Origin: Candidatus Omnitrophota bacterium
Lineage (GTDB): Bacteria; Omnitrophota; Gorgyraeia; Gorgyraeales; Gorgyraeaceae
NCBI GenBank assembly: GCA_018824725.1
Contig: JAHJGB010000062.1
Span: 1 to 51,479, forward strand
Length of the DNA stretch: 51,479 nucleotides
Reading direction: 5' to 3'
Below the pieces are notes generated by a model, which saw nothing but the letters and a program-made list of their open reading frames with translations, was not told the DNA's origin and did no database searches. The translations under genes were made by a program, and so were the position numbers. Shown one piece after another: positions 2,493-45,576 of this stretch (positions are counted from its first letter, which is position 1; every line of letters begins with the position of its first letter).

Positions 2493-3545
2493 TTATTGCC
2501 TTTCTAGCTCAATCGCCATGTTGAAAAGCGCCATCTTTGGATTTATGTTTCTTCTTATATAATTCATAGTTTTCATTACGCTGGATATGTCCCTTTCGAG
2601 CTTATCTGCGGAAAACCTGGCAGAATAAGAGAATATCTCCTCTATCCTGTCTGCGTTCAGGAAAATATTCCTGTCTTGGGTGAATTTTGAAACCAATAAA
2701 TCCCTGTACCAGGATAAAAGCATGCCAAGCGACGCGTCCAGGTCGTTATATTTTTTATCGTCGCATGCCTCTTCCCTCAATATAGCCCTCTTTCTTAAGA
2801 AAAAGTCGTTCAGCATCCTGTCGCGTTCCCTGATCTCGTCGTTTTCTTTGAAGGCTATTGCCCTGCCGGGGCTGCCCAAGGCCATGCGCGAAAATAAAAC
2901 CGCTTCTTCTTCATTAAAACCCTGCCTATTGATAAGAATTTCCTGAATCCTAGCCTGGCTTAAAAGATTGAACTTCACAACCTTGCATCTGGAAAATACC
3001 GTAGGCAATATCCCGGAAACGGCCGAGGTGGTCAATATGAATATCTGGTTTTCCCTGGGCTCTTCCAGGATTTTCAAAAGCGCGTTCTGGGATTCTTCGT
3101 TCATATCCTCTGCTTCAGCTATTATAAAAATCTTTTTCCTGGCCTCATAAGGCTTCAGGCTCGCCTGATAAATAACATCCCTTATCCTGTCTATCTTGAT
3201 AAAACTAGCTCCTTCTTCTTTCCGGATAATAAATAAATCCGGGTGATTTAAAGAGTCTATACATTCGCCCGCCACAGAAACAACGGCGGGCTCAGTATTC
3301 CGCCCACAGGAACCCCGGGCCTTAGCCCGGGTAGGCTCCATTTTCTTGCACGAAACGCATTCTCCGCATGCATCCGGCCCTAATTTAGCGCAATTAATTG
3401 CCTTGGCAAATTCTATGCCGGCAGAGAACTTTCCCACGCCTTTAGGGCCTAAAAAAAGATAAGCGCCGTTTATATCTTCCTTGCCGAGCATAGCGTTAAG
3501 CGCCTTTACAGCGTTATCCTGTCCTATGATATCTCTTAGCGGCAT
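2493..3545 (-). CDS. holB: DNA polymerase III delta' subunit, carrying an in-frame repeat insertion
   Basis: 350 aa. P-loop-like GPKGVGK, Cys module CGECVSC, HPD motif, SRC motif (FSRCKVVKF). Overlaps tmk by 10 nt. Confidence 0.85.
   Translation of the reverse strand: MPLRDIIGQDNAVKALNAMLGKEDINGAYLFLGPKGVGKFSAGIEFAKAINCAKLGPDACGECVSCKKMEPTRAKARGSCGRNTEPAVVSVAGECIDSLNHPDLFIIRKEEGASFIKIDRIRDVIYQASLKPYEARKKIFIIAEAEDMNEESQNALLKILEEPRENQIFILTTSAVSGILPTVFSRCKVVKFNLLSQARIQEILINRQGFNEEEAVLFSRMALGSPGRAIAFKENDEIRERDRMLNDFFLRKRAILREEACDDKKYNDLDASLGMLLSWYRDLLVSKFTQDRNIFLNADRIEEIFSYSARFSADKLERDISSVMKTMNYIRRNINPKMALFNMAIELERQ
3258..3344 (-). repeat. Family F two-hairpin element inserted in frame in holB
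   Basis: The reverse complement reads AAAATGGAGCCTACCCGGG..CCCGGGGTTCCTGTGGGCGGAATACTGAGCCCGCC..GGCGGGCGAATGTAT. This is homologous to 33222..33329 and 30931..31038. Confidence 0.85.
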
Positions 3546-20012: not shown

Positions 20013-20120
20013 GGCACACTAAAGTGTGCCCTACAATTCTGTCGCAAAGGCCTTCATGAGCACCTTATCGTAAGGGAGGTTTAAACCTCCCTTACGATAA
20101 GGTATTCTCGGCCTTTGCCT
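20013..20120 (-). repeat. Family E stop-to-start intergenic cassette
   Basis: GGCACAC-TAAA-GTGTGCC + CTACAATTCTGTCGCAAAGGCCTTCAT + an 18-bp-stem variable hairpin + ATTCTCGGCCTTTGCC. It fills the lolE-lolD gap exactly. Confidence 0.85.
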
Positions 20121-29705: not shown

Positions 29706-31052
29706 TTACAGCTTATAGCTTATTTTTCTCAGTTTATGGTGATATTTTAATGCGAACCTGTGGGCTTCATCCCTCACGCTCTGTATAAAATGCAATATCT
29801 CGGAGTCCCTGTTTATATCGAGCGGCTCGGATGAGCCCAGCGTATATATCCTTTCCTCCTGTTTGGCAATGCCGATCACAGGCACGTGGCTGAGATTTAA
29901 TTTTAAAAGCTCTTCATATGCCGCGGCTAGATGGCCTTTTCCGCCGTCTATTATAATCAGATCCGGAAGAATTTTCTTCTCTTCTTTCAACCTTTTGTAC
30001 CTTCTATGGACAATCTCTTTTATCATAGCATAATCATCAATGCCTTTTACATTTTTTATCCTGAATTTTCTGTAGTTTGATTTATCCGGCAGGCCGTTAT
30101 CGAAATAAACCATTGAGCCCGTGGCTTCTTTGCCGGATATATTCGATACGTCAAACGCCTCTATTTTCAAAGGCATGCTGGGAAGTTTTAAGATTTTCTT
30201 TAATTTTAAAGCGACATTGCCCCACGAGCTGTAATCAGCTGTCTTTCTGTCAGAAACCTCTAAAAGGGCCGAGAGCCTGTTGCGGATAACAGCTGCTTGT
30301 TCAAAATCTTTTTTATCGGCAAATTCTTTCATCTCGCCTGTCAATTCCTGTATCAATCTTGTTTTCTTGCCTTCCAGGAATAAGATCAGCTGCCTGACTA
30401 TCTCGTTATAAGATTTTTCATCTATTTTTTTCACGCAAGGGCCCATGCACTGCCCTATATGATAAGCTAGGCATACTTCCCCCGGAATTTTTTTACAAAT
30501 CCGCATGGGAAATATATTTTTCAATATAGTGACGGCATTTCTTAAAAGCCTTGCCTTTGTATAAGGCCCGAAATACCTGGAGCCGTCTTCAATCTTTTTT
30601 CTTGTTATAGTAAGCCTTGGGAATTTTTCGTTTAATGTGATTTTTAAAAGGGGAAAGCTTTTGTCGTCTTTTAATTCAACGTTATATTTCGGCTTTTTCT
30701 CCTTTATCAGGCTAGCTTCATATATCAGCGCCTCTTCTTCCGAGCCTGTAACCACGTAATCCAGGCCTTTAACCTTTTCCAATAGTAACATGTGTTTGGC
30801 TGTTTTCGGAGTTCGCTCCCGGAAATAGGTAGACACCCTTTTATAAAGGTCCTTGGCCTTGCCTATATAAATAGCCTCTCCCAAAGCGTCCTTCATTATA
30901 TAGACCCCGGGGAGGCGTGGGATATCCTTTATACATTCGCGGCCAGAGATCCGCACCTTTAAGGGTGCGGATGAACAATGGCCGCTCAGTATTTCGCTAC
31001 AGGAAACCGCAGGTTTTAACTCGCGGAGCTTCATTTTCTCTCTAACACCCAT
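29706..31052 (-). CDS. uvrC: UvrC-like excinuclease lacking the C-terminal (HhH)2 domain, with a repeat-encoded N-terminal segment
   Basis: 448 aa. GIY-YIG (PGVYIMKD...IYIGKAK), UVR motif (DFEQAAVIRNRL), RNase H-like endonuclease region (IEAFDVSNISG). Ends ...EAHRFALKYHHKLRK. An alternative ATG at 31034 overlaps the murJ stop. Confidence 0.8.
   Translation of the reverse strand: MGVREKMKLRELKPAVSCSEILSGHCSSAPLKVRISGRECIKDIPRLPGVYIMKDALGEAIYIGKAKDLYKRVSTYFRERTPKTAKHMLLLEKVKGLDYVVTGSEEEALIYEASLIKEKKPKYNVELKDDKSFPLLKITLNEKFPRLTITRKKIEDGSRYFGPYTKARLLRNAVTILKNIFPMRICKKIPGEVCLAYHIGQCMGPCVKKIDEKSYNEIVRQLILFLEGKKTRLIQELTGEMKEFADKKDFEQAAVIRNRLSALLEVSDRKTADYSSWGNVALKLKKILKLPSMPLKIEAFDVSNISGKEATGSMVYFDNGLPDKSNYRKFRIKNVKGIDDYAMIKEIVHRRYKRLKEEKKILPDLIIIDGGKGHLAAAYEELLKLNLSHVPVIGIAKQEERIYTLGSSEPLDINRDSEILHFIQSVRDEAHRFALKYHHKLRKISYKL
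30931..31038 (-). repeat. Family F two-hairpin element inside the uvrC 5' end, overlapping the murJ stop
   Basis: The reverse complement reads AAAATGAAGCTCCGCGAG..CTGCGGTTTCCTGTAGCGAAATACTGAGCGGCCA..TGGCCGCGAATGTAT. 108 nt equals 36 codons. Confidence 0.85.
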
Positions 31053-32548
31053 GACAAAAATTCCTTTGCCTCTTTTACGCCGAAAATAAACGCTGCGCCG
31101 ATATAACTTAGAATAGCTACTAGTATCACAATAAAAAGATTCAGGCTTATTTTAAAAGCGCACATATAAATCACAGCTGCCATTGCCAGGCTGGCCAGAA
31201 GCGCCTTTAAAAAAGAATTCAATATCCTGCGGGTATCCAGAGGCCCTATCTTTTTTCTCAATATGATAAAAAGCGCTACAAAATTAAAAATCCCGGAAAG
31301 CGAAGCTGCCAGCGCCAAGCCGCCCAGCCTTAAAGGAAACATAAGTATCAAATTAAGTGCTATATTCAGAAGAAGCGACGCTACTGCAATCTTCACAGGA
31401 GTCCGCGTATCCTGCAGAGAATAAAAACAACTTACAAGGATCTTTATACCGGAATAACTGAAAAGTCCTATGGAGTAAAAAACAAGGGCATTGGCTGTGA
31501 TAAGGGTGGAATAATGGTCAAACTTTCCTCTCTCAAACAAGGTCTTTGTTATTGGAACCGCGAGCACTATAAGGCCTATTGAAGCAGGAATAATAATAAA
31601 GTTTATAACCCTTAATGAAAAAGAAAGCGTGCGCTTTAAGTTATCCGGATCCTTTTCCAGCGCCTCCCTGGACATGGTAGGCAGGGCTGCCTGGGCTATG
31701 GCAATGCCGAATATGGCCAGAGGAAACTGAAAGATCCTGTTTGCATAATAAAGCGCCGCAACTCCTCCGGATCCCACTATAGCGGATAAAGACGCAAGGA
31801 TTGTGTTTATAAAAAGGTTCAGCTGGTACACGCATGAACCTAAAATACGCGGCAATAATAAAACGCCGATCTTATTTGCAGCCGGATGATTTAATTTTCT
31901 TGTAAATGAAAACCTGAAACCTTTTCTGTATAAGACCGGCATCTGTATGGCAAGCTGCAGCACCCCGCCTATTAAAACACCGCTCGCAAGCCCCATCACG
32001 TTTTCGCCCCAAATAATAGCGCATACTATAATAGCTATATTCAGCAGGCACGGCCCGAAAGCAGGCGCTGAAAAATGTTTCAGGGAATTCAACACGCCCA
32101 TTGTGTAGGCAGCCAGGCCTATAAGGAGTATGTAAGGAAACATCAGGCGCGTCAGTTTGACTGTTATTGCGAATTTTTCAGGGTCATCCAGAAAACCAGG
32201 CGCCATAAACCTGACAATCCAGGGTGAAGCGAAAATACCTGCAATGGTTATGGCGGAAAGTGTTATAAGCAGTAAATTCAATATGACATTTGCGAGTTCC
32301 CAGAACTCTTCTTTTTTCTTCACCATGTATTCGCTCAGGACAGGAACAAAGGCCGCGTTAGTAGCGCCTTCGCCCACCAGATCCCTGAGCATATTAGGTA
32401 TGCGGAATGCCACTACAAAAGCCTCAGCGTATCTGGCTGTGCCGAAGAACCTGGCAATTATAATATCCCTTACAAAGCCCAGCACCCTGCTTATCACTGT
32501 GGCAAATCCTATTATCCCGGCTGATTTTATAATATGTTTTTTGGACAT
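31031..32548 (-). CDS. murJ: Lipid II flippase MurJ (MviN family)
   Basis: 505 aa, about 14 TM helices. N-terminal GFATVISRVLGFVRD signature typical of MurJ. Confidence 0.9.
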   Translation of the reverse strand: MSKKHIIKSAGIIGFATVISRVLGFVRDIIIARFFGTARYAEAFVVAFRIPNMLRDLVGEGATNAAFVPVLSEYMVKKKEEFWELANVILNLLLITLSAITIAGIFASPWIVRFMAPGFLDDPEKFAITVKLTRLMFPYILLIGLAAYTMGVLNSLKHFSAPAFGPCLLNIAIIVCAIIWGENVMGLASGVLIGGVLQLAIQMPVLYRKGFRFSFTRKLNHPAANKIGVLLLPRILGSCVYQLNLFINTILASLSAIVGSGGVAALYYANRIFQFPLAIFGIAIAQAALPTMSREALEKDPDNLKRTLSFSLRVINFIIIPASIGLIVLAVPITKTLFERGKFDHYSTLITANALVFYSIGLFSYSGIKILVSCFYSLQDTRTPVKIAVASLLLNIALNLILMFPLRLGGLALAASLSGIFNFVALFIILRKKIGPLDTRRILNSFLKALLASLAMAAVIYMCAFKISLNLFIVILVAILSYIGAAFIFGVKEAKEFLSWVLERK

Positions 32549-32979: not shown

Positions 32980-33246
32980 ATGCCAATTTTACACGCATCT
33001 TATAAAGATATAAAACAAAGCGCTAAAAGGGGTTTGCGCAATCAATCTGTAAAATCCGAGCTAAAGACAGAGACAAAGAAATTTTTAGACCTTATCTCTT
33101 CCAAAAAAATGGACGAGGCTAAAAAACAGCTTACTTATCTGATATCACAGCTTGATAAAGCGCAATCAAAAGGCATTGTTCATAAAAACACTGCCTCGCG
33201 TAAAATTTCCCGCTTGATGAAAAAAATGGAGCCCACCCGGGTTTAA
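32980..33246 (+). CDS. rpsT: 30S ribosomal protein S20
   Basis: 88 aa, basic and helical, with N-terminal HASYKDIKQSAKR... typical of S20. The last 6 codons (MEPTRV) and the stop lie in a family F element. Confidence 0.9.
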   Translation: MPILHASYKDIKQSAKRGLRNQSVKSELKTETKKFLDLISSKKMDEAKKQLTYLISQLDKAQSKGIVHKNTASRKISRLMKKMEPTRV

Positions 33247-33329
33247 GCCCGGGGTTCCTTGGGCGGAATACTGAGCGGCCATTACCTATCTGCGGTCTAA
33301 AGACCGTAGTTTTGTGGCCGCGAATGTAT
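33222..33329 (+). repeat. Family F two-hairpin element at the rpsT 3' end
   Basis: AAAATGGAGCCCACCCGGG-TTTAAG-CCCGGGGTTCCTTGGGCGGAATACTGAGCGGCCA...TGGCCGCGAATGTAT. Confidence 0.85.
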
Positions 33330-37709: not shown

Positions 37710-38711
37710 TTAAGCCAATGCCTGGCAGGAGCTTCTTTCCACCAACTCTGTTGAGAGCACTATTCTTTTATTAGACCTTATTTTCTTCTGAATGATCTGG
37801 TTAAGCGTCTGCGTAGCAACCAAGGCCATCTTGTGCAAAGGCTGCCTTATGGTCGTAAGAGGTATAGGACTGTAATTCAATGCCAGGGGATTATCGTCAA
37901 AGCCTATGATTGATATATCCCCAGGGACACCGACTCCGTTTTCCAGGCATACCTGTATAGCCCCGACAGCCATTTCATCGCTTGCCGCAAATATTGCTGT
38001 AGGCGGGATCTTCATCCTGATCAGGTCTTTTGTCAAGGTCATAGCAGATTTCCTTCCGAAATCCCCGTATTTTATATAATCTTTTTTCTTGTCGATTTTA
38101 TGCTTTTCCAGCGCTGTCAAATAACCGTTTAACCTGTCTATTGCCACTTGCGTTTTCAGCGCGCCTGTAATAGTGGCGATCCTGGAATGCCCTAATTTTA
38201 CAAGATATTCAACCGCATCCAGGCCTGCGTTAAAATTGTCTATTGATATGCATGATACAGGAAGATCTTTGGTGTCATAGTTCATTATAACGCATGGAAG
38301 CCCTGCCTCTACCACCCCATCAACTTGCTCCTCATTGCCTATAATATCAGAAAATATCACTCCCTGTACGCTGGAGATATTTAAAAATGAGTCTCCATTG
38401 GTTACGTGCAGCAATAAATCCATCTTCATGCGTTCCACCGCAACCCCTACGCCCTGTAATATCTGAAGGGCGTAAAATGAATGGAATATATCTGTGTACC
38501 TGGGAATAACAAGGCCTATTATGTTATTGTTGCGCTTTGAAGCCAGGCGCTGGGCGCTCACATTAGGCCTGAATTTCAATTTCTTGATAGCCAGTTCTAT
38601 CTTATCCCTGTTATATTTTTTTACAGAACTTAATTTATTCACAACTCTTGAAACAGTGGCTATTGAAACGCCGGCCTCCCTAGCCACGTCTTTAATATTT
38701 TTTATGCTCAT
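37710..38711 (-). CDS. LacI-family transcriptional regulator
   Basis: 333 aa. N-terminal HTH IKDVAREAGVSIATVSRVVN and a periplasmic-binding-protein-like core. Its ATG overlaps the secretin stop (ATGA). Confidence 0.9.
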   Translation of the reverse strand: MSIKNIKDVAREAGVSIATVSRVVNKLSSVKKYNRDKIELAIKKLKFRPNVSAQRLASKRNNNIIGLVIPRYTDIFHSFYALQILQGVGVAVERMKMDLLLHVTNGDSFLNISSVQGVIFSDIIGNEEQVDGVVEAGLPCVIMNYDTKDLPVSCISIDNFNAGLDAVEYLVKLGHSRIATITGALKTQVAIDRLNGYLTALEKHKIDKKKDYIKYGDFGRKSAMTLTKDLIRMKIPPTAIFAASDEMAVGAIQVCLENGVGVPGDISIIGFDDNPLALNYSPIPLTTIRQPLHKMALVATQTLNQIIQKKIRSNKRIVLSTELVERSSCQALA

Positions 38712-40225
38712 TTTAATTTCGCTCCTTCCGGGCTTAAAATAGTAGCTGTTACAAATATCAAAAGATTTTTTCTTGTGGTGCTGTCTGAATCTTTTTTAAA
38801 AAGCGCGCCCAATATAGGGATGTCCCCTAAAAACGGCGTCTTTGTCCTGGTACTAGTCTTGGATTCCTTTATGAGCCCTCCCAGGACCACAGTATCCCCG
38901 TTTTGCACAGCTATATTCGTGCTTAGGTTTCTGGTGGTGAATTTCGGGAGCTTTATTTCTCCGCTATATTGAAATGCATCGGCTGTAGCCTCGCTGACCT
39001 CGGGATGAAGCGTCAATGCTATAGTCTCTTTGTCTTTACCTACGCTCGGGGTTACGTGTAATAAAATCCCTATAGGCCTTGTTTCAAAACCCTGGGGCAC
39101 ATTTACGAAACGGGTCTCTTTGATGCCTTTCACTGACGTATCGAGAAAATCCCCGTCTGAGTTCAAATCCTCTTTTACAAGAGTAGGCTCATACCGCGTA
39201 GGATATACAAATTCATCCGCTATCGCTATCGTCGCTGTCTGGTTATTCAATGTGGTTATCTTAGGCGCGGAAAGTGTTTTACTATTTGTCTTTTTATCAA
39301 GGGCATGCAGCACCGCGGAAAACTGTGGTTTTGTCAATATGCCTTGATAAGCAAGATTCAATCCTTCATCAGGCGAACCTGTAAATGTTGAAAATTTTGA
39401 ACCGCTTGATGACCCTATTTGGGTAATCGCGCCGTTCTCGGTCCCGCTGAGTGTTTGTTTAGTTATAGCCCATGGGCTGTCCAGCGACAAGTTCACTCCC
39501 AGCTCGCTCAGATCAGTTACATTCACCTCTACGAACCTCGCTTCCACCAGAACCTGGGTAGCGTCTATATCCAAATTATATAATATATCCTCTATAATTT
39601 TAAGGTTCGAGGGCGTATTAGTAACTATCAAAGCTCCGGTGCGCTCATCCAGGTTGATCTTCGAATCAGAAGGCCACATCACCGCATTTTCAAGCGTATC
39701 TTTTATAGTGGTTATCTTGGATATAGCAGCTCCTCCGCCCTTAGCCCCGCTAGTAGTCCCGCTGAATTCAGTGAACATGGCAAGCCCCTGGTCCAGAAAA
39801 TACATCCTGGTCTCAGACGTTTCATTATCCATGTTATCTATGGTATCCACCCATACGGCATTTTTCTCAATCCTGTATATAAGCCCCTGATTCCTGAAAA
39901 CATATTTCAGAAGGCTCTCCAGAGACATGTCCTTGACCTTTATGGTAACCTTTTTTTCTGAAAGCTTGACTCCGCTGCCCGGGATTATATTAACGTCTGT
40001 GGCCTCTGACAAAAAATCAATGACATAGTCAAGGCCCACGTCCATAAAATCCACTGTTATCGGGGTCTTGAGTTTTTTTCTTATCTCGGGGATCTCTACA
40101 ACCACTGAATTGTTCCCGATAGTATCGTCCCCCTTGACAGACTTCATCTCGTAAGCAAAAGAAACCTCAGGGCTTGAAAATAAAACTATGCATAATAACA
40201 TGCGCATCAAAAAATTCATGGCCAT
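38708..40225 (-). CDS. Secretin (GspD/PilQ family), short paralogue
   Basis: 505 aa. Signal peptide, N0-like domain (ITVDFMDVGLDYVIDFL...) and a C-terminal secretin motif TPFLGDIPILGALFKK. Confidence 0.85.
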   Translation of the reverse strand: MAMNFLMRMLLCIVLFSSPEVSFAYEMKSVKGDDTIGNNSVVVEIPEIRKKLKTPITVDFMDVGLDYVIDFLSEATDVNIIPGSGVKLSEKKVTIKVKDMSLESLLKYVFRNQGLIYRIEKNAVWVDTIDNMDNETSETRMYFLDQGLAMFTEFSGTTSGAKGGGAAISKITTIKDTLENAVMWPSDSKINLDERTGALIVTNTPSNLKIIEDILYNLDIDATQVLVEARFVEVNVTDLSELGVNLSLDSPWAITKQTLSGTENGAITQIGSSSGSKFSTFTGSPDEGLNLAYQGILTKPQFSAVLHALDKKTNSKTLSAPKITTLNNQTATIAIADEFVYPTRYEPTLVKEDLNSDGDFLDTSVKGIKETRFVNVPQGFETRPIGILLHVTPSVGKDKETIALTLHPEVSEATADAFQYSGEIKLPKFTTRNLSTNIAVQNGDTVVLGGLIKESKTSTRTKTPFLGDIPILGALFKKDSDSTTRKNLLIFVTATILSPEGAKLK

Positions 40226-40226
40226 T

Positions 40227-42728
40227 TTATTGTTTTAAAGATTCTTCTTCTAAACCTTCAGCGCTTGCTACCTTATTCTCTTCTTTGCCCATGATACTGG
40301 CTGTAACGAATATTAAAAGATTCCTTCTCTCTTTGAAATCAGTATTCTTTCTGAACAGCCCGCCTATAAAAGGTATATTGCCCAGCACCGGCACTTTTGT
40401 CTTCACGTTTGTATTCGTCTCTTTTATAAGCCCACCCAATACTATTGTTTCCCCGTCTTTAACCATCACGCTGGTGCTGAGGTTTCTGGTGGTAAAATTA
40501 GGAATGCTGACGTTTCCTGAATATGTGAAAGACCCCGCATCTTCGCTGACTTCGGGAGTTAACGCAAGCGTGATGCTCTTTTTATCCACCCCTACGCTCG
40601 GCTTGACATGTAAAAGTATGCCTATGTTTCTGGTCACAAAATCCTGGGGCACATTTATCCACTCTGTTTCTCCTGCGTCATCAAAATCCCCGTCTCCGTT
40701 TATGTCATACTGCACAAGGCTTGCTTCATATCTGGTAGGATAAATATATTCCTCCACGACTTCTATGGTGGCTGTCTGGTTATTAAGAGTGGTTATCCTG
40801 GGAGCGGATAACGTCTTCACATTCTGTTTTTCCTGAAGCGCGTGCATGGCTGCCTGAAACTGCGGATTGCTCAAGATACCCTGATAAGTAAGATTAAACC
40901 CTTCGTCCGAGCGGTTGAAATTAGAAAAATCCACCCCGCTGTCCTGGCTGACTCCGTACACATTGTTGCCAGATCTGTTTTTGTCCATAGCCCACATGCC
41001 GTTCAGTTTCCACTCCACTCCAAAGTCATCCAGATCGCTTACCTTGACTTCCAAAAATCTCGCCTCAATCAAAACCTGCATAGGAGTTATATCAAGGTTA
41101 TATAAAAGATTCTCTATGGTTTCCAGATTTGAGGGCGTGTTGCTTATAATAAGCGCGCCGGTGCGCTCATCCAGAGTCAATTTTGAATCCTTGGGCCATT
41201 CAACCGCATTCTCAAGGATATTTTTTACTGTCTTTACTTCTGAGGCAGAGGTAGCTACAGTGCCGGAGGACTTATCTTCGCCTGATGACGAAGCCTGGGT
41301 TGCAAACTCCGCGAACCTTCCTATGCCCTGGCTTAAAAAATATACCCTTGTATCTATTTTTTCATTAGATATCTCGTCCTTTGTAGCCACCCATACAGCG
41401 TCTTCTTCTATCCTGTAAACCAAGTCCTGGGATTTTAATATATACCTCAGCGCCTCTTCGAGAGGCATATCTTTTATCCTTATGCTTACCTTTTTTTCAG
41501 CCATATCTATCTCTGTAGAAGGAACCATGTTTACGCCTGTGGTGTCTGCTAGAAAACCCAGGACATAATCCAAACCAACGTCTTTAAAATCAACGCTTAT
41601 GGGTATCTTGAGACGCTTTCTTATTTCAGGTACCCTCACTATAGGGGTTATCTTTTTTTCATTTTCAAGCTTGGCTGTTTTTTCTTCAGGCAATATATGT
41701 TTTTTTGCCACATCCAGCATCATCTTTTCTTCAGTAAGCTCCCTGGCTTTTTTCAAAGCAGCCTCTTCCACTTTCAGTTTCTGCATGTCTATATAATGCT
41801 GTATATCCTTGAATTTTTCATTTTCCGGAAATTCCTGCATAGCTTTATCCACCAGGACCTCTGCCTCTTCAAATCTTTTTTCCCTGATATTGCCTATTAT
41901 ACTGTCCATCAAACCTGCCAGCTTGGCAACTCTGTCTCTGGCTTCTTTGACTTTTAACCTCTGTTCAAACATCATTCTGAGCGCCTCTTTCTGTTTTTCT
42001 TTTCTGGCCAGCTCCACTCTATTGAGCTCGGCATCTCTTTCCATTTCCAGCTTGGCGCGCCGTGCCTCTTCCATTTTCACAAGAAGTATCTTTTCTTCTG
42101 TTTTTTTCATTTGTTCCTGCATATCGCGGATATAAGAATCCGCCTGGCCTGCCAGAGAACTGATAGAATCCATCTCCTTTACCTTTTTAAACCCCACTAT
42201 GCTTGAAGGATAATCTTTGGACCTATAATATGCCAAGGCGCTGTCAAATACAGCCTTTATATTCCGCTCTTTTTCGTACAATTCTTTTTTCTTTGAATCC
42301 AGCGCTAACTTTTTCTTTTGCTGCTCTTCCTGGATAATCTTTTCGCTTTCTTTCCTGGCCAGCGCCTCTGCCTCGCCCACCACGTCCTTTTTCATCCTTT
42401 CCCATTTTTTCTCTTCCATGATCATGAGTTCTGCCATGCGGGTTTTGGATTTTTCAATGTATATCTCAGCAAAAGGCGTAAAATACGATTGATTGTCGGC
42501 CTTTTCTACTTCAATCAATTTTTCAAATATTATAACAGCTTCTTTGTATTTACCTGACTCGAACAGGGACATGGCTTCTTCAAAATATTTCCTAAGGTTG
42601 ACCTTTAACGCGACAACAGTCCTTGCGGAATAATTCACTGACGCAAACACCCCGGAAGGCAGGTACTCCAGCATCATAAATGCCGCCATTATTAATGATA
42701 TATAATACAATCCTTTATTTCTTCTCAT
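40227..42728 (-). CDS. Secretin (GspD/PilQ family) with a ~380-aa N-terminal TPR/coiled-coil extension
   Basis: 833 aa. The C-terminal ~450 aa is paralogous to the 505-aa secretin (ISVDFKDVGLDYVLGFL...; VPVLGNIPFIGGLFRK). The N-terminal region is E/K-rich helical. Confidence 0.85.
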   Translation of the reverse strand: MRRNKGLYYISLIMAAFMMLEYLPSGVFASVNYSARTVVALKVNLRKYFEEAMSLFESGKYKEAVIIFEKLIEVEKADNQSYFTPFAEIYIEKSKTRMAELMIMEEKKWERMKKDVVGEAEALARKESEKIIQEEQQKKKLALDSKKKELYEKERNIKAVFDSALAYYRSKDYPSSIVGFKKVKEMDSISSLAGQADSYIRDMQEQMKKTEEKILLVKMEEARRAKLEMERDAELNRVELARKEKQKEALRMMFEQRLKVKEARDRVAKLAGLMDSIIGNIREKRFEEAEVLVDKAMQEFPENEKFKDIQHYIDMQKLKVEEAALKKARELTEEKMMLDVAKKHILPEEKTAKLENEKKITPIVRVPEIRKRLKIPISVDFKDVGLDYVLGFLADTTGVNMVPSTEIDMAEKKVSIRIKDMPLEEALRYILKSQDLVYRIEEDAVWVATKDEISNEKIDTRVYFLSQGIGRFAEFATQASSSGEDKSSGTVATSASEVKTVKNILENAVEWPKDSKLTLDERTGALIISNTPSNLETIENLLYNLDITPMQVLIEARFLEVKVSDLDDFGVEWKLNGMWAMDKNRSGNNVYGVSQDSGVDFSNFNRSDEGFNLTYQGILSNPQFQAAMHALQEKQNVKTLSAPRITTLNNQTATIEVVEEYIYPTRYEASLVQYDINGDGDFDDAGETEWINVPQDFVTRNIGILLHVKPSVGVDKKSITLALTPEVSEDAGSFTYSGNVSIPNFTTRNLSTSVMVKDGETIVLGGLIKETNTNVKTKVPVLGNIPFIGGLFRKNTDFKERRNLLIFVTASIMGKEENKVASAEGLEEESLKQ

Positions 42729-43293
42729 TTAAGCCCTTTGTATCCTCTGCGGTTTTCTCTTTTTCTTCTTTCTTCTCTTCCTTTGCAGTGGAAATAACAA
42801 TTTCTTCTCCACTATTTTTCCTAAGAAGCACTTCTTTGTCGCCTATGCTGACAACAATAAATTCTCCCGCAGAGTCCCCTTCTTTAACAGAAAAACTTTT
42901 TCCTGTGTTCTGATCTTCTATAATAACTATAACCCTGGCTCCCAGCGTCATCCTGCCTTTGTAAACAAATAAAGGTTTCTTCGGTTCTTCTCTTAAAGGT
43001 ATAATATCTCCTTTGGTTTCCTCTTTTACTTCAGAAACAGGCCTGGAAAAAATATCCCTTTCCGCCAGGGCAAGGTAATCATCCATTGTTTCCTGTTTCT
43101 TCAGCCCATCAATATCCCAGCTATCCTTGGCCGCCTTTTTTTTGGCCTTTGCCTTTTCAGTTACGGACTCTATATCCTTTAAAAATTCGCCTGTTGATTT
43201 CTTTTTAGTCTCCTGCGTCTTCATGCCTATTACCAAGGTGCCTATCAATACGGGCAAAAGGGCCAGAAATATAATCTTTTCCTTTATAATCAT
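42715..43293 (-). CDS. PilP-like periplasmic protein
   Basis: 192 aa. N-terminal TM helix, charged linker, C-terminal small beta-domain (YKGRMTLGARVIVIIED...GDSAGEFIVVSIGDKEVLL). Position matches PilP. Confidence 0.5.
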   Translation of the reverse strand: MIIKEKIIFLALLPVLIGTLVIGMKTQETKKKSTGEFLKDIESVTEKAKAKKKAAKDSWDIDGLKKQETMDDYLALAERDIFSRPVSEVKEETKGDIIPLREEPKKPLFVYKGRMTLGARVIVIIEDQNTGKSFSVKEGDSAGEFIVVSIGDKEVLLRKNSGEEIVISTAKEEKKEEKEKTAEDTKGLNEKK

Positions 43294-44051
43294 TTTTCTT
43301 CCCTCGCAACCATAAAACTGCTCAATACCAGGCTTATCTCTGCGTCTCCTGAACCGGGCTCGATGCTCTTAACGTGTAATTCTTTTACGCTGATCACAGG
43401 GCTGGCATTTTTAAGCTCCAGCAAAAGATTCATAAAAGCGGTTGTTGTTGTTTTTATAGAAATCTGCACAGGCAGTTCAGTATAAAAGAGCTTCTTTGAA
43501 ACAGGTTCTATGTATTCAATAGGCCTGAGCGGTTTCAGGGTATAAATATCCGAGCCATTGCTTTTTAAAAGCGCGCCTACGGCAAACTCTATTGTCTCAA
43601 GCTGCCTCAAAAGCACAGGCACCATGTTATCCTTGGGAAGCCCGTCCCCGAAACCGAGGTTCTCCGGAAGCCTTACGTCTTTTGTCCCTGCCTCTATTTC
43701 AAATTTCTTCATCGTAGAATGAAGTTTTTCTATAAAATAAAGGCCCGCCTCTGAGTTCTTTTCAGAAAGCCTCGCCTTGTTCGGATCTGTAAAATCCGCC
43801 AGGCTGGAAAATTTATCTTCCAGTAAATCCCTATCTTTCTCCATCTTTGCAAAACTTTCCTTTGAAGGCACTGTGCCTGTAAGCGTGATAAATCTTTTCA
43901 TTTCGCTTATCTTGCGCTCCAATTCTTCGTCCATGATTGAGCGGCCTTCTTTCAAAAAAGGACTGAGGAAAAATATATAAATGCCTGCCAAAACAGCAAG
44001 TACTATAAGCCCCTGTTTTAAAGTAGTTTTTTCTCTTACAGTTTTTAACAT
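43290..44051 (-). CDS. PilO-like bitopic membrane protein
   Basis: Start taken at MLKTVREK (ATG 44051, SD GGGAG 5 nt upstream). TM helix, coiled coil, ferredoxin-like C-terminal domain. Position matches PilO. Confidence 0.5.
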   Translation of the reverse strand: MLKTVREKTTLKQGLIVLAVLAGIYIFFLSPFLKEGRSIMDEELERKISEMKRFITLTGTVPSKESFAKMEKDRDLLEDKFSSLADFTDPNKARLSEKNSEAGLYFIEKLHSTMKKFEIEAGTKDVRLPENLGFGDGLPKDNMVPVLLRQLETIEFAVGALLKSNGSDIYTLKPLRPIEYIEPVSKKLFYTELPVQISIKTTTTAFMNLLLELKNASPVISVKELHVKSIEPGSGDAEISLVLSSFMVAREEK

Positions 44052-44052
44052 A

Positions 44053-45576
44053 TTAACTCCCACTAAGAACAACATCCATGGTAATGCTGAATTTAACTAT
44101 CTCTTCCCCCGTATCCGTGTCGTTTTCCACGGAAGACGACACGGGCCGCACATCGCTGAAACTCGGCAATGCCTTAAGGCTAGACACAAAATTATTAACC
44201 GACTGATAGGACAAGGCCTTTCCGTTCATGTCCATTCTCCCAAGGCTGCTCTTTTCGATCGATATTACCCCCGACAAATCCGTAATCCAGACATCCTTGG
44301 GAAGCATCTCTGAAACAGCTTTGAATATCCCGAGCCACACAGCCCTGGAAGAGACTGTCTGGTACATGGTATCTATTTCCCCTCTTAAAATATTTTCCTC
44401 TTCCTGTATCTTCTTTATCTTGGGCTCATAAGTCCTGTATGTCTCCATCATCTCTTCCACCTTATCAAGCTTGATCTTTTTTATATAGTAGTCCTGGCGC
44501 ATAAAAACGGAAAAGCTTATAAGCACCAGAGCGCCAGTGGCCATTGAAAGGCCGGCATAAATACGTTTTTGCATAGAGGATTTCTTTTCCGAAAGAGCTT
44601 CTTTAAGAAAATTCACTTCTATTTTTAGATCAGCTATCCCCCTCAGCGCAGCACCCACAACCGTAGAAAACTGATTCTTAGGCCCGCACGCCTGAAGTTT
44701 CTGGAACACATCTTTAGATACCCTTAATTTTCTAAAAGGGTCCATGATATTAGGCTTTATGTTAAATTTGGAAATAAGCGAAGCTTCTATATTTTCCATA
44801 ACGCTTCCGCCGCCTGTCAGAAAAAGCTGGGTTAACTTTTTTTCCTGCGGGGCATCTTCTGCTGCCTGCATAAAATAATACTCCAGGGACCTTTCTACCT
44901 CTGTCAGAAGCTCCTCTGCGCCCTGCTCTTTTGCCTCTTCAATCCTCTCCCCGGCTATAGGAAAACTTCTTATCCATATGTTACCTTTATTAAATATAAT
45001 GAAATTGGTGGATTTCGCTCCTATGTCAAGTATGGCCCCGAGGTCCTGGCTGTTAAAGTCCTCGTTGAATGCCATACAGTTATATACGCTTATGGGCGCG
45101 ACATCTATCAACTCTGTGGACAATTTAACGGAATTCAGCCTGGAAACTATTTCTTCCACCAGGTTTTTCTTTATCGCGACTATGACGGCCCTCCTGGATG
45201 AATCTTTATCGCTATCCAGAAGAGACCAGTCCCACATGACCTCGTTCATGCTGAAAGGTATCTGGTTCTGCGCTTCGAATTTCATAGTCTGTTTCAATTT
45301 ATCCTCTTTCACCTGAAGGAGCTTTACGAATCTTACAAAAACAGACTGCCCGCTTATCGTTATATTCACGGTATTCGGCTTTATATTATTCTCTAATAAT
45401 AATTCGGAGACGAGCTGGCCGGTGATTTTATCCCTGTCAAGTTTCGAGTCTTTGGGGATTTCTTTTATGCCGATCCTGGTCAGGACAATGCTACCCTTTT
45501 CTTTTTTAAGCTCAACTAGCTTTATAAAATGCGTACCTATATCCAAGGCTATCGAACTTGCCTTTAACTTGGCCAT
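44053..45576 (-). CDS. pilM: PilM-PilN fusion (actin-like ATPase, TM helix, PilN-like domain)
   Basis: 507 aa. IALDIGTHFIKLVEL and LDIGAKSTNFIIF actin-fold phosphate loops. TM helix YAGLSMATGALVLISFSVF. C-terminal periplasmic domain. Confidence 0.75.
   Translation of the reverse strand: MAKLKASSIALDIGTHFIKLVELKKEKGSIVLTRIGIKEIPKDSKLDRDKITGQLVSELLLENNIKPNTVNITISGQSVFVRFVKLLQVKEDKLKQTMKFEAQNQIPFSMNEVMWDWSLLDSDKDSSRRAVIVAIKKNLVEEIVSRLNSVKLSTELIDVAPISVYNCMAFNEDFNSQDLGAILDIGAKSTNFIIFNKGNIWIRSFPIAGERIEEAKEQGAEELLTEVERSLEYYFMQAAEDAPQEKKLTQLFLTGGGSVMENIEASLISKFNIKPNIMDPFRKLRVSKDVFQKLQACGPKNQFSTVVGAALRGIADLKIEVNFLKEALSEKKSSMQKRIYAGLSMATGALVLISFSVFMRQDYYIKKIKLDKVEEMMETYRTYEPKIKKIQEEENILRGEIDTMYQTVSSRAVWLGIFKAVSEMLPKDVWITDLSGVISIEKSSLGRMDMNGKALSYQSVNNFVSSLKALPSFSDVRPVSSSVENDTDTGEEIVKFSITMDVVLSGS

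Follow-up and report, generated by a model that had tools for sequence, protein, structure and literature searches.

A gene-less two-hairpin element that appears to have entered holB in an Omnitrophota genome belongs to a family residing in frame in protein-coding genes

Extra residues in HolB and empty sites in relatives

The essential clamp-loader protein HolB (delta' subunit of DNA polymerase III) encoded in the window, that is, the whole 51,479-nt stretch analyzed, which is part of a MAG, reads CGECVSCKK-MEPTRAKARGSCGRNTEPAVVSVAGEC-IDSLNHPD. Sequence comparison indicates that its extra 27 residues come from a small mobile DNA element, non-autonomous and defined by its structure, that inserted recently. 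We estimate at roughly 0.85 the probability that a selfish mobile element has inserted here and is read through in frame. Read-through translation of the HolB insert is inferred, and insert-derived peptides such as KMEPTR and AGECIDSLNHPD would be predicted if it takes place. The palindromic element that the first-pass annotation placed in holB at 3258-3344, between CGECVSCKK and IDSLNHPD, has the sequence and translation described there. The further copies that it reported in uvrC and rpsT are both present, with their ends now trimmed to 30931-31034 and 33226-33329. The copies and their host genes are as follows.

2493..3545, minus strand: holB, DNA polymerase III delta' (350 aa, otherwise intact)
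3259..3341, minus strand: element copy 1, short form, in holB (defined by empty sites; nhmmer E = 1e-14)
3314..3331, minus strand: hairpin 1 of copy 1, CCCGGG-CUAAGG-CCCGGG
3290..3301, minus strand: conserved core GGAAUACUGAGC, joining the two hairpin units of copy 1
3267..3291, minus strand: hairpin 2 of copy 1, GC-CCGCC...GGCGG-GC, leading into the 3'-terminal GAAUGUAU
29706..31052, minus strand: uvrC (448 aa, against 413-416 aa in most orthologues)
30931..31034, minus strand: element copy 2 (long form), which adds a net 102 nt between uvrC codons 6 and 7
31031..32548, minus strand: murJ (stop TGA at 31031-31033)
32980..33246, plus strand: rpsT, ribosomal protein S20, with the C-terminal tail replaced by element copy 3
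33226..33329, plus strand: element copy 3 (long form), which adds a net 102 nt four codons ahead of the original rpsT stop

The reading of the HolB segment as an insertion is borne out by its relatives: the 27 residues are missing from all 120 listed orthologues, at every distance. These proteins are 202-338 aa long, and the closest, of 323 aa, are up to 95% identical outside the insert. In the DNA, the empty holB site AGCAAA[AT]AGAT corresponds to the filled site AAGAAA[AT]GGAGCC...GCGAATGT[AT]AGAC, a clean 81-nt insertion, and the empty uvrC site GAAAAA[AT]AAAGG corresponds to GAGAAA[AT]GAAGC...GAATGT[AT]AAAGG, an insertion of 102 nt. The sole difference between filled and empty sites is the element plus the shared AT. 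The location first given for the holB copy was thus right, and the empty sites narrow it to 3259-3341, which makes 83 nt when AT is counted at each junction and a net insertion of 81 nt. Compared with other short copies, copy 1 carries two 1-nt indels that compensate each other.

Copy 1 lies directly 3' of the codon for the fourth cysteine of the zinc module and encodes HolB residues 69-95. In an AlphaFold2 model (mean pLDDT 82.6), the remainder of delta' folds normally and the insert is a low-confidence loop. Confidence falls below 50 only at residues 72-98, a drop that partly follows from the absence of the insert from the alignment. The PDB alignment of HolB to E. coli gamma also breaks at the insert.

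The other two copies reshape the genes around them. Copy 2 adds MKLRELKPAVSCSEILSGHCSSAPLKVRISGREC to UvrC, and its 5' AUGA now provides the TGA stop of murJ, which at the empty site is a TAA spanning the insertion point. At the same uvrC site, relatives carry a 45-nt remnant. As previously noticed, holB and uvrC share the reading frame of the element, which begins at its ATG. With copy 3, rpsT ends in six element-derived residues (MEPTRV) and a TAA stop that lies in the loop of hairpin 1; by direct sequence reading, removal of 102 nt regains the ending ...RLMKKIKAA*. This copy is located just upstream of a terminator hairpin. An nhmmer profile built from 31 family members, the three window copies included, detects these three and no others in the 51-kb window (E = 6e-27, 9e-27 and 1e-14).

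Structure of the element and its target site

The element is a two-hairpin structure of 80-105 nt that carries no gene. On the strand used in the first-pass annotation, it is built from two units that resemble each other and follow in direct order, first AUGRAGC-[stem-loop]-GCGRAAUAC and then UGAGC-[stem-loop]-GCGAAUGUAU. No terminal inverted repeats are seen in the aligned copies, and the ends AUGAAGC and GCGAAUGUAU are not inverted repeats of each other. Because the scan pattern included the 10-nt tail of the core, AAUACUGAGC, its identity in all members collected is by construction. In the blocks described earlier as conserved and single-stranded, the AAA at the start and the final AT of the TAT at the end belong to the target site or are shared with it, and around hairpin 1 the blocks are partly paired. 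There, GCNNN pairs with NNNGC, with covariation at two positions (UA16/CG14 and CG11/AU10/GU4). Hairpin 1 of copy 1 sits within a short outer helix, the sequence of which covaries across the family. Pairing of AUAC with GUAU is also possible, both sides being invariant partly because the search pattern fixed them.

The claim that stems differ between copies and stay complementary is true of the window copies and extends to the family: a hairpin-2 stem of at least 5 bp is kept in 76 of 91 distinct sequences, against 24.5 (maximum 36) when the arms are shuffled. Optional sub-stems come and go among copies. The same strand folds better in 65 of 78 copies, with 159 versus 95 G-U pairs.

Insertion takes place in a fixed orientation at a (G)AAA-AT-AAA target, and the junction repeat is the AT dinucleotide only. 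The flanks read (G)AAA|AT...AT|AAA in 41 Omnitrophota-type copies and A|AT...AT|CAA in 39 Acidobacteria-type copies. On the complementary strand, they become TTTAT or TTGAT, resembling a TAM, and the element ends in TTCAT, TCCAT or TTTAT.

Distribution of the family and residence in proteins

More copies exist in reference genomes, in which at least 100 loci carry the exact 20-nt split core, with up to 17 loci per genome. Matches in Omnitrophota come from at least 27 assemblies, single-cell genomes among them. A sister subfamily is found in Acidobacteriota/Aminicenantes, and the copies of Acidobacteriota STD1_136 are nearly identical. No copies were detected in plasmid, phage and IMG/VR collections, and no vector between the phyla was identified. 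A search of the Omnitrophota literature for this element family returned no description; the family is apparently undescribed.

The net length is divisible by 3 in 32 of the 40 Omnitrophota-type copies, the usual values being 102, 81, 78 and 75 nt, and several reading frames of the element are usually stop-free, although the copies are mutually related and neither count is made of independent cases. Since the usual lengths preserve the frame and several frames are open, insertions inside genes would be read through. Copies lie within long ORFs in 14 of 42 cases, in either orientation, and no significant orientation bias was seen relative to the local coding strand, taken as a proxy for replication direction. 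A protein search with a concatenated multi-frame profile revealed element peptides from four frames embedded in at least 15 unrelated protein families, including CoaE, TrmD, HSP20, GATase, a cytidylyltransferase, STAS and YkgJ. A 35-residue peptide compared with 1.8 billion representative proteins gave 5 matches, which say little because the query was so short. Members of the family generally reside in frame in proteins.

Possible mobilization by a single-strand HUH transposase

The best-fitting model of movement, since the flank and the element end both read TTNAT, is mobilization in trans by an HUH tyrosine transposase (IS200/IS605 TnpA or RAYT-like), which we propose tentatively and rate somewhat below even odds. 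A single-strand-specific enzyme of this kind would act on a gene-less element which, on the complementary strand, sits 3' of TTNAT and itself ends in TTNAT. Combined with hairpins near both ends and no duplication beyond the shared AT, this is the 'peel-and-paste' signature. Such enzymes excise precisely, and insertions in essential genes would then be reversible. ISDra2 inserts 3' of TTGAT, forms subterminal hairpins on single-stranded DNA and is excised precisely (PMC2806898). The pentanucleotides that flank IS605-family elements (TAM) and those that end them (TEM) are near-identical, and derivatives without genes, the PATEs, are mobilized in trans (PMC10055086). REPs and RPE-like repeats have been linked to Y1 transposases (PMC3733652).

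The element resembles PATEs of IS200/IS605 in being gene-less, in its hairpins near both ends, in having neither inverted repeats nor a target duplication, and in inserting in one orientation beside a 4-5 nt motif. Its flank, TTTAT or TTGAT, is near-identical to its terminal TTCAT, TCCAT or TTTAT, as are TAM and TEM in ISGst, and TTGAT is the target of ISDra2. In contrast to PATEs, no full-length IS with the same ends was found: none was present among the first 100 genome matches listed, and a narrow metagenome scan for the hairpin-2 unit without the rest of the element gave one match, a nested 44-nt insertion. Several other features also argue against an HUH enzyme. Only about 6 nt separate the TTNAT flank from the foot of the hairpin, a very short spacing for a PATE and shorter than that in IS608. 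The better-folding strand is the opposite of the strand that gives the TTNAT logic. Moreover, conservation extends to one more base on the far side of the insertion point, for which the IS605 model has no need. The lack of an orientation bias relative to the local coding strand also counts against the model. In Omnitrophota-type copies, AAGAA/TTCAT and AGGAA/TCCAT covary in a guide-like manner, but they fit an ordinary helix on the other strand equally well, and the rule fails in Acidobacteria-type copies.

The neighborhoods of the copies were searched for a source of the enzyme. Across 100 loci, recurring neighbor proteins were only ordinary housekeeping clusters, and a regex search for HUH-Y1 or TnpB-like ORFs in the 8-kb neighborhoods of those loci gave nothing credible. 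No RAYT gene flanked by copies was seen in the 8-kb neighborhoods, and no transposase domain was found in 17 window ORFs (1.7-4.2 kb and 29.7-51.3 kb). A search for split copies, with cargo separating the units, gave no convincing case.

An extension of the HUH proposal, which we consider rather unlikely, is that Omnitrophota and Acidobacteriota/Aminicenantes share a cross-phylum family of HUH-mobilized hairpin elements adapted to life in coding sequence, whose insertions in essential genes would be reversible and which would form a previously unrecognized, population-level source of switchable peptide loops in core proteins. It draws on the 3n length variants, on the four of six frames that are usually open and on ends able to supply ATG, TGA or TAA. 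Reversibility in holB-like essential genes would follow here from the precision of peel-and-paste excision.

Alternative explanations

The same junctions could be produced in another way: the element could be a double-stranded circle moved by a 2-bp-crossover recombinase (IS607-type serine or IS110-type), with AT as the core dinucleotide. The two junctions share just two bases, AT, of which empty sites have a single copy, and this also fits such an enzyme. Terminal inverted repeats are absent, insertion is oriented and site-selective, and the end junction of the circle, GCGAAUGU-AU-GAAGC, would resemble the internal GCGAAAU-AC-UGAGC. On the other hand, no recombinase gene is associated with the copies, and the arms around AT are not conserved inverted repeats, because the adjoining stems vary freely. 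IS607 has little target specificity, and IS110 elements need a bridge RNA of at least about 150 nt, for which an 81-nt element has no room. We regard movement of this kind as improbable.

The folding data raise the question of whether the element acts as RNA, either as a regulatory, small or guide-like module or by spreading through an RNA intermediate, its residence in proteins being a side effect. One strand folds consistently better and has more G-U pairs, and covarying stems with optional sub-stems are typical of RNA families; the position of the rpsT copy just before a terminator would also suit such a role, and PATEs often encode guide RNAs (PMC10055086). However, G-T wobble pairs also stabilize single-stranded DNA hairpins, and copies occur in both orientations to host genes, so that many would be transcribed as the weaker-folding strand. 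The 3n length bias points to selection at the level of translation. Known TnpB guide-RNA scaffolds are longer than 81-104 nt. Rfam searches of the whole window and 18 loci at the gathering threshold gave nothing relevant, nor did an Rfam search around the rpsT copy with E up to 10, in which ribozymes were likewise unmatched. By eye, the core CUGAGC...GCGAA does not fit the hammerhead or K-turn consensus. An RNA function or intermediate is, in our judgment, quite improbable.

Removal of the segment as an intervening sequence, that is, a miniature intron or an intein-like peptide, would explain how essential genes bear the insert without being destroyed, and IS605-family IStrons unite DNA mobility with self-splicing (PMC4227781). 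The element, however, has no group I, group II or other ribozyme match, the core of the first two being absent by Rfam from the whole window. Splicing needs neither 3n length nor stop-free frames, both of which are enriched; the rpsT copy uses its own internal stop codon, and 27 residues are too few for an intein. Known self-splicing introns are also far above 81-104 nt. Collectively, these points make removal of the segment very improbable. Finally, repeats can confuse assemblers and the window comes from a MAG, but an assembly artefact, or an ancestral HolB segment lost in relatives, has a negligible chance of being correct, given its absence from every listed orthologue, the same family in unrelated genes of at least 27 independent Omnitrophota assemblies, the exact in-frame junctions and the older 45-nt copy at the uvrC site common to two independently assembled relatives.

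Comparison with known repeats

Judged by published descriptions, the element, which we read as a selfish mobile insertion, matches neither RPEs nor REPs nor classical MITEs, and its behavior is RPE-like. Similarly to RPEs, it is a short, gene-less, palindromic, multi-copy repeat, frequently found in frame in unrelated genes, often housekeeping ones (PMC10969869, PMC3733652). RPEs add a peptide of 20-50 residues, predicted to be compatible with the fold of the host protein (PMC10969869, PMC3733652), and their defining habit, in-frame insertion into functional genes, is present in this family. The likeness to Rickettsia elements proposed in the first-pass annotation holds as far as selfish palindromic DNA tolerated in frame is concerned, and it is a likeness in behavior only. 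Compared with these descriptions, the element has neither CGTC, the tag given for RPE ends (PMC3733652), nor GACG at its ends, in Omnitrophota-type and Acidobacteria-type copies alike. It is built of two hairpin units that differ from each other and run in direct order, inserts at a defined AAA-AT-AAA target in one orientation and is shorter than the approximately 150 bp of the first-described RPEs (PMC10969869). It is hosted by Omnitrophota and Acidobacteriota with a free-living or epibiotic life, whereas the RPE-1 to RPE-10 families are those of Rickettsia.

REP and REPIN sequences associated with RAYTs are also hairpin repeats, often paired and devoid of terminal inverted repeats, whose movement is attributed to a Y1 HUH transposase acting in trans. 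Inside genes, uvrA and uvrB among them, they code for 20-30 residues (PMC3733652). In contrast to REPs, whose hairpins of 20-40 nt follow a conserved GTAG or CGTC tag, the element has no such tag, GTAG being found in some copies but not beside a hairpin. Its units, flanked by UGARGC and GCGAAAU, are direct, whereas REPIN doublets are inverted. Classical MITEs (ERIC, BOX, Coxiella QMITE1/2, Anabaena MITEs, Correia) are likewise small and non-autonomous, lie in ORFs and supply start or stop codons or peptides. They differ by their terminal inverted repeats and target duplications of 2-11 bp, the marks of DDE enzymes; the aligned copies of the element show no inverted repeats of the MITE type (15-30 bp) and no clear duplication. 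Other origins were rejected as well: no tRNA or tmRNA was found in the window, the 5' junction has no TA as expected from a Tc1/IS630-like duplication, and a terminal signature matching Helitron/IS91-like ends is absent.

The statement that such behavior had not been described outside Rickettsia was too strong, as in-frame palindromic or MITE insertions are documented elsewhere (PMC3733652, PMC10969869, PMC5896051). Examples include GTAG/CGTC REPs that lie within genes, uvrA among them, in Opitutus terrae and Thioalkalivibrio (PMC3733652), and in-frame insertions of ERIC, BOX, Coxiella QMITEs and Anabaena MITEs (PMC10969869, PMC5896051). Since this habit was already known, the novelty lies in a new family and not in a new behavior.

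Significance

Elements of this family lengthen or re-terminate annotated proteins, as seen for holB, uvrC, rpsT and murJ, and create spurious small ORFs; MAG annotation pipelines should mask them. An abundant family with clean boundaries and recently active subfamilies in at least two phyla offers a tractable system for asking which enzyme moves REP/RPE-like repeats and how proteins tolerate insertions of 25-35 residues. In-frame colonization of essential genes by palindromic selfish DNA is not peculiar to Rickettsia and is common in Omnitrophota, a poorly studied candidate phylum.

An in-frame insertion in holB

A profile of 31 family members, these three included, detects exactly three copies of the element in the window (E = 6e-27, 9e-27 and 1e-14). 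The copies in uvrC and rpsT, already proposed in the first-pass annotation, are present as listed.

Coding region and element copies in the window
2493-3545, minus strand: holB ORF, DNA polymerase III delta' (Pfam DNA_pol3_delta2, 9e-46, and delta C-terminal domain)
30931-31034, minus strand: element copy in uvrC
33226-33329, plus strand: element copy in rpsT

The same annotation described the holB copy at 3258-3344, and the sequence agrees: the translation reads CGECVSCKK-MEPTRAKARGSCGRNTEPAVVSVAGEC-IDSLNHPD, in a protein identical to the NCBI entry of a Candidatus Omnitrophica metagenome-assembled genome. That this segment is an insertion is borne out by orthologue comparison, since its 27 residues are missing from all 120 HolB orthologues listed, the closest of these being 323 aa long and 95-88% identical. 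The filled site (TGC AAG AAA [AT]G GAG CC...GCG AAT GT[AT] AGA C) was aligned with the DNA of four empty sites, which read TGC AGC AAA [AT]A GAT (L103, L104) or TGC AAA AAT ATA AAC (L101, L102), and the net gain is 81 nt. The HolB alignment to E. coli gamma (1njf) splits exactly at the insert, right after the fourth cysteine of the zinc module. AlphaFold2 modelling from 65 sequences gave a mean pLDDT of 82.6, and values below 50 are confined to residues 72-98, essentially the insert at 69-95, though this low score in part reflects the absence of the insert from the modelling alignment. Such low confidence is compatible with, though no proof of, a surface segment looped out of the fold.

Copies in uvrC, murJ and rpsT

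The cleanest pair of filled and empty sites is found in uvrC. UvrC orthologues start MGVKEK/IKDIPHLPGVY (DNA GAAAAA[AT]AAAGGAT); in the window, 34 additional residues (102 nt) separate EK from IKD, and the DNA reads GAGAAA[AT]GAAGC...GCGAATGT[AT]AAAGGAT. AT alone is repeated at both junctions, and the element ends are not inverted repeats. The insertion lies inside the 22-nt murJ/uvrC overlap (31031-31052) and both genes remain intact: the original murJ stop TAA straddled the insertion point, and AUGA of the element provides TGA at the same codon position. In rpsT, the element is located four codons ahead of the original stop. Removal of 102 nt restores a C-terminus ...RLMKKIKAA; the present one is ...RLMKKMEPTRV, terminated by a TAA in the hairpin 1 loop.

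The uvrC 5' ends of two relatives (L105, 10001-10045; L107, 1107-1170) carry a 45-nt one-unit remnant at the codon 6/7 site, with the second unit missing precisely between two GCGAA repeats; unit 2 can be lost through slippage between such repeats. This shared remnant marks the insertion in uvrC as an old one in decay; the one in holB is recent. A third UvrC orthologue (P0126) has an unrelated 9-residue insert, INPDFAKFG, at this position, and the AAAAATAAA site in uvrC looks like an insertion hot spot.

UvrC of this Omnitrophota lineage is only ~413 aa long, without C-terminal helix-hairpin-helix domains (window 29706-31052 and orthologues); more distant orthologues have ~465 aa, with HHH_5 and related Pfam domains. 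In the syntenic relative L105 (1-507), an intein that carries a LAGLIDADG endonuclease domain splits ribonucleotide reductase; here, too, selfish DNA sits in frame within an essential gene, but it is of another kind.

Organization of the element

In the element, two similar units follow each other in direct order: AUGRAGC-[outer helix + hairpin 1]-GCGRAAUAC (unit 1) and UGAGC-[hairpin 2]-GCGAAUGUAU (unit 2). Covariation is seen in the outer helix of unit 1, where one pair is UA16/CG14/AU1 and another CG11/AU10/GU4. Hairpin 2 occurs in a short form (holB) and in a long form with an additional inner hairpin (uvrC, rpsT), and its stems are diverse (e.g. GGCCA/UGGCC, CCGCC/GGCGG, GGCGC/GCGCC, CCCGA/UCGGG, CCUGC/GCAGG). 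The previously noted complementarity of stems despite sequence change holds across the family: in 76 of 91 distinct hairpin 2 sequences the stem reaches 5 bp or more, and shuffling the 3' arms between copies lowers this number to 24.5 (maximum 36). No Rfam family matched the element in the window, 18 loci or the rpsT copy.

Unit 1 can accommodate other small hairpin repeats as nested insertions. Such repeats lie in unit 1 or the linker at L005, L011, L033, L034, L056, L072, L074, L082, L095 and L108; the L108 insert has 44 nt, starts with ACATTCG and includes GCTCAGT, and an example from Acidobacteriota is CCCTCATTCGCTCCGCGAACGAGGACTGC. Genomes with nested repeats seem to harbour several small mobile hairpin families.

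Elsewhere in the window, two convergently ending minus-strand ORFs flank a near-perfect 18-bp inverted repeat (CCTTATCGTAAGGGAGGTTTAAACCTCCCTTACGATAAGG, 20063-20103), which has no relation to the element and is probably another repeat or a terminator. A cluster for a type IV pilus or for secretion (38708-45576) comprises two secretin genes in tandem and a PilM-PilN fusion gene; large proteins that contain Ig-like and lamin-tail domains are encoded downstream.

Distribution

In a genome set with one representative per species, at least 100 loci matched the pattern AATACTGAGC-N15-45-GCGAATGTAT. Among the matches listed, 27 Omnitrophota-labelled assemblies, single-cell genomes included, carry the element, with up to 9 loci per genome, and a few bins have other labels, at least one of them identical to an Omnitrophota contig. 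Since a contig binned as Paceibacterota agrees exactly, in element and flanks, with an Omnitrophota bin of the same study (L021 versus L087; also L083, L026), some of these labels probably reflect erroneous binning, and the real host range may be smaller than they imply. A sister subfamily, the Acidobacteria-type, has unit 2 in common but another unit 1 (AUAAACCC...GGGUU). Its hosts among the matches listed are Acidobacteriota STD1_136 (17 loci), Aminicenantes bins and an Eubacteriales-labelled bin (16 loci), and its copies are often almost identical. Plasmid, phage and IMG/VR collections yielded no copies.

Behaviour in coding sequences

Among 42 Omnitrophota-type copies, 14 lie inside ORFs extending at least 40 codons on each side, 8 in sense and 6 in antisense orientation, two of the latter in giant proteins. 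In 32 of 40 copies the net length is divisible by three, and so are the length classes 102, 81, 78, 75, 114, 123, 132 and 153 nt; compared with shuffled controls, four of the six reading frames are more often open. Because the copies are related, the counts give an indication but do not amount to a formal test. A four-frame peptide profile searched against 5.8 billion proteins gave 25 matches at E up to 1, with the element peptide in an N-terminal, internal or C-terminal position in hosts including dephospho-CoA kinase, cytidylyltransferase, TrmD, HSP20, glutamine amidotransferase, STAS, YkgJ, 2'-5' RNA ligase and acetate kinase. We consider it very probable (about 0.85) that the element is a selfish, non-autonomous insertion read through in frame.

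Possible mode of mobility

The element contains no gene, the 8-kb neighbourhoods of its copies share no recurrent protein and include no HUH or TnpB-like ORF, and a scan of 17 window ORFs revealed no transposase domain. According to flank logos, the target is oriented and non-palindromic: (G)AAA/AT...AT/AAA for 41 Omnitrophota-type copies and A/AT...AT/CAA for 39 Acidobacteria-type copies. On the complementary strand, TTTAT or TTGAT precedes the element, which itself ends in TTCAT, TCCAT or TTTAT. These motifs match the logic of IS200/IS605 'peel-and-paste' mobilisation. ISDra2, which excises precisely, works on single-stranded DNA through subterminal hairpins and has its insertion point 3' of TTGAT (PMC2806898); the flanking (TAM) and terminal (TEM) pentanucleotides of ISGst elements are almost identical, and gene-less PATE derivatives are mobilised in trans (PMC10055086). 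Y1 transposases have also been linked to REPs and RPE-like repeats (PMC3733652). On the other hand, no autonomous element with the same ends appeared among the first 100 genome matches or in a metagenome scan, it is the opposite strand that folds better, the flank motif lies very near the hairpin, and the putative guide pairing is not robust between subfamilies. Mobilisation by an HUH transposase is a tentative proposal, at somewhat less than even odds. A less likely alternative, which also weighs against it, is a serine or IS110-type recombinase with the AT as a 2-bp crossover.

Relation to known elements

The suggested likeness to Rickettsia palindromic elements (RPEs) holds for behaviour but not for the defining feature tested, as the element is devoid of the CGTC tag of RPEs, which were compared by description. 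It also lacks the GTAG tag and inverted doublets of REPs and the inverted ends of classical MITEs, and shares most, though not all, features of IS200/IS605-derived PATEs. The remark that such in-frame behaviour had not been seen described outside Rickettsia goes too far: in Opitutus terrae and Thioalkalivibrio, REPs lie inside uvrA and further genes (PMC3733652), and ERIC, BOX, Coxiella QMITEs and Anabaena MITEs provide more cases of in-frame palindromic or MITE insertions (PMC10969869, PMC5896051). Our literature search found no account of this family, nor of such elements in Omnitrophota. The element is best seen as a new family of an already known kind of insertion, notable for its abundance, a core conserved across phyla, a coding-compatible design and clean pairs of filled and empty sites.
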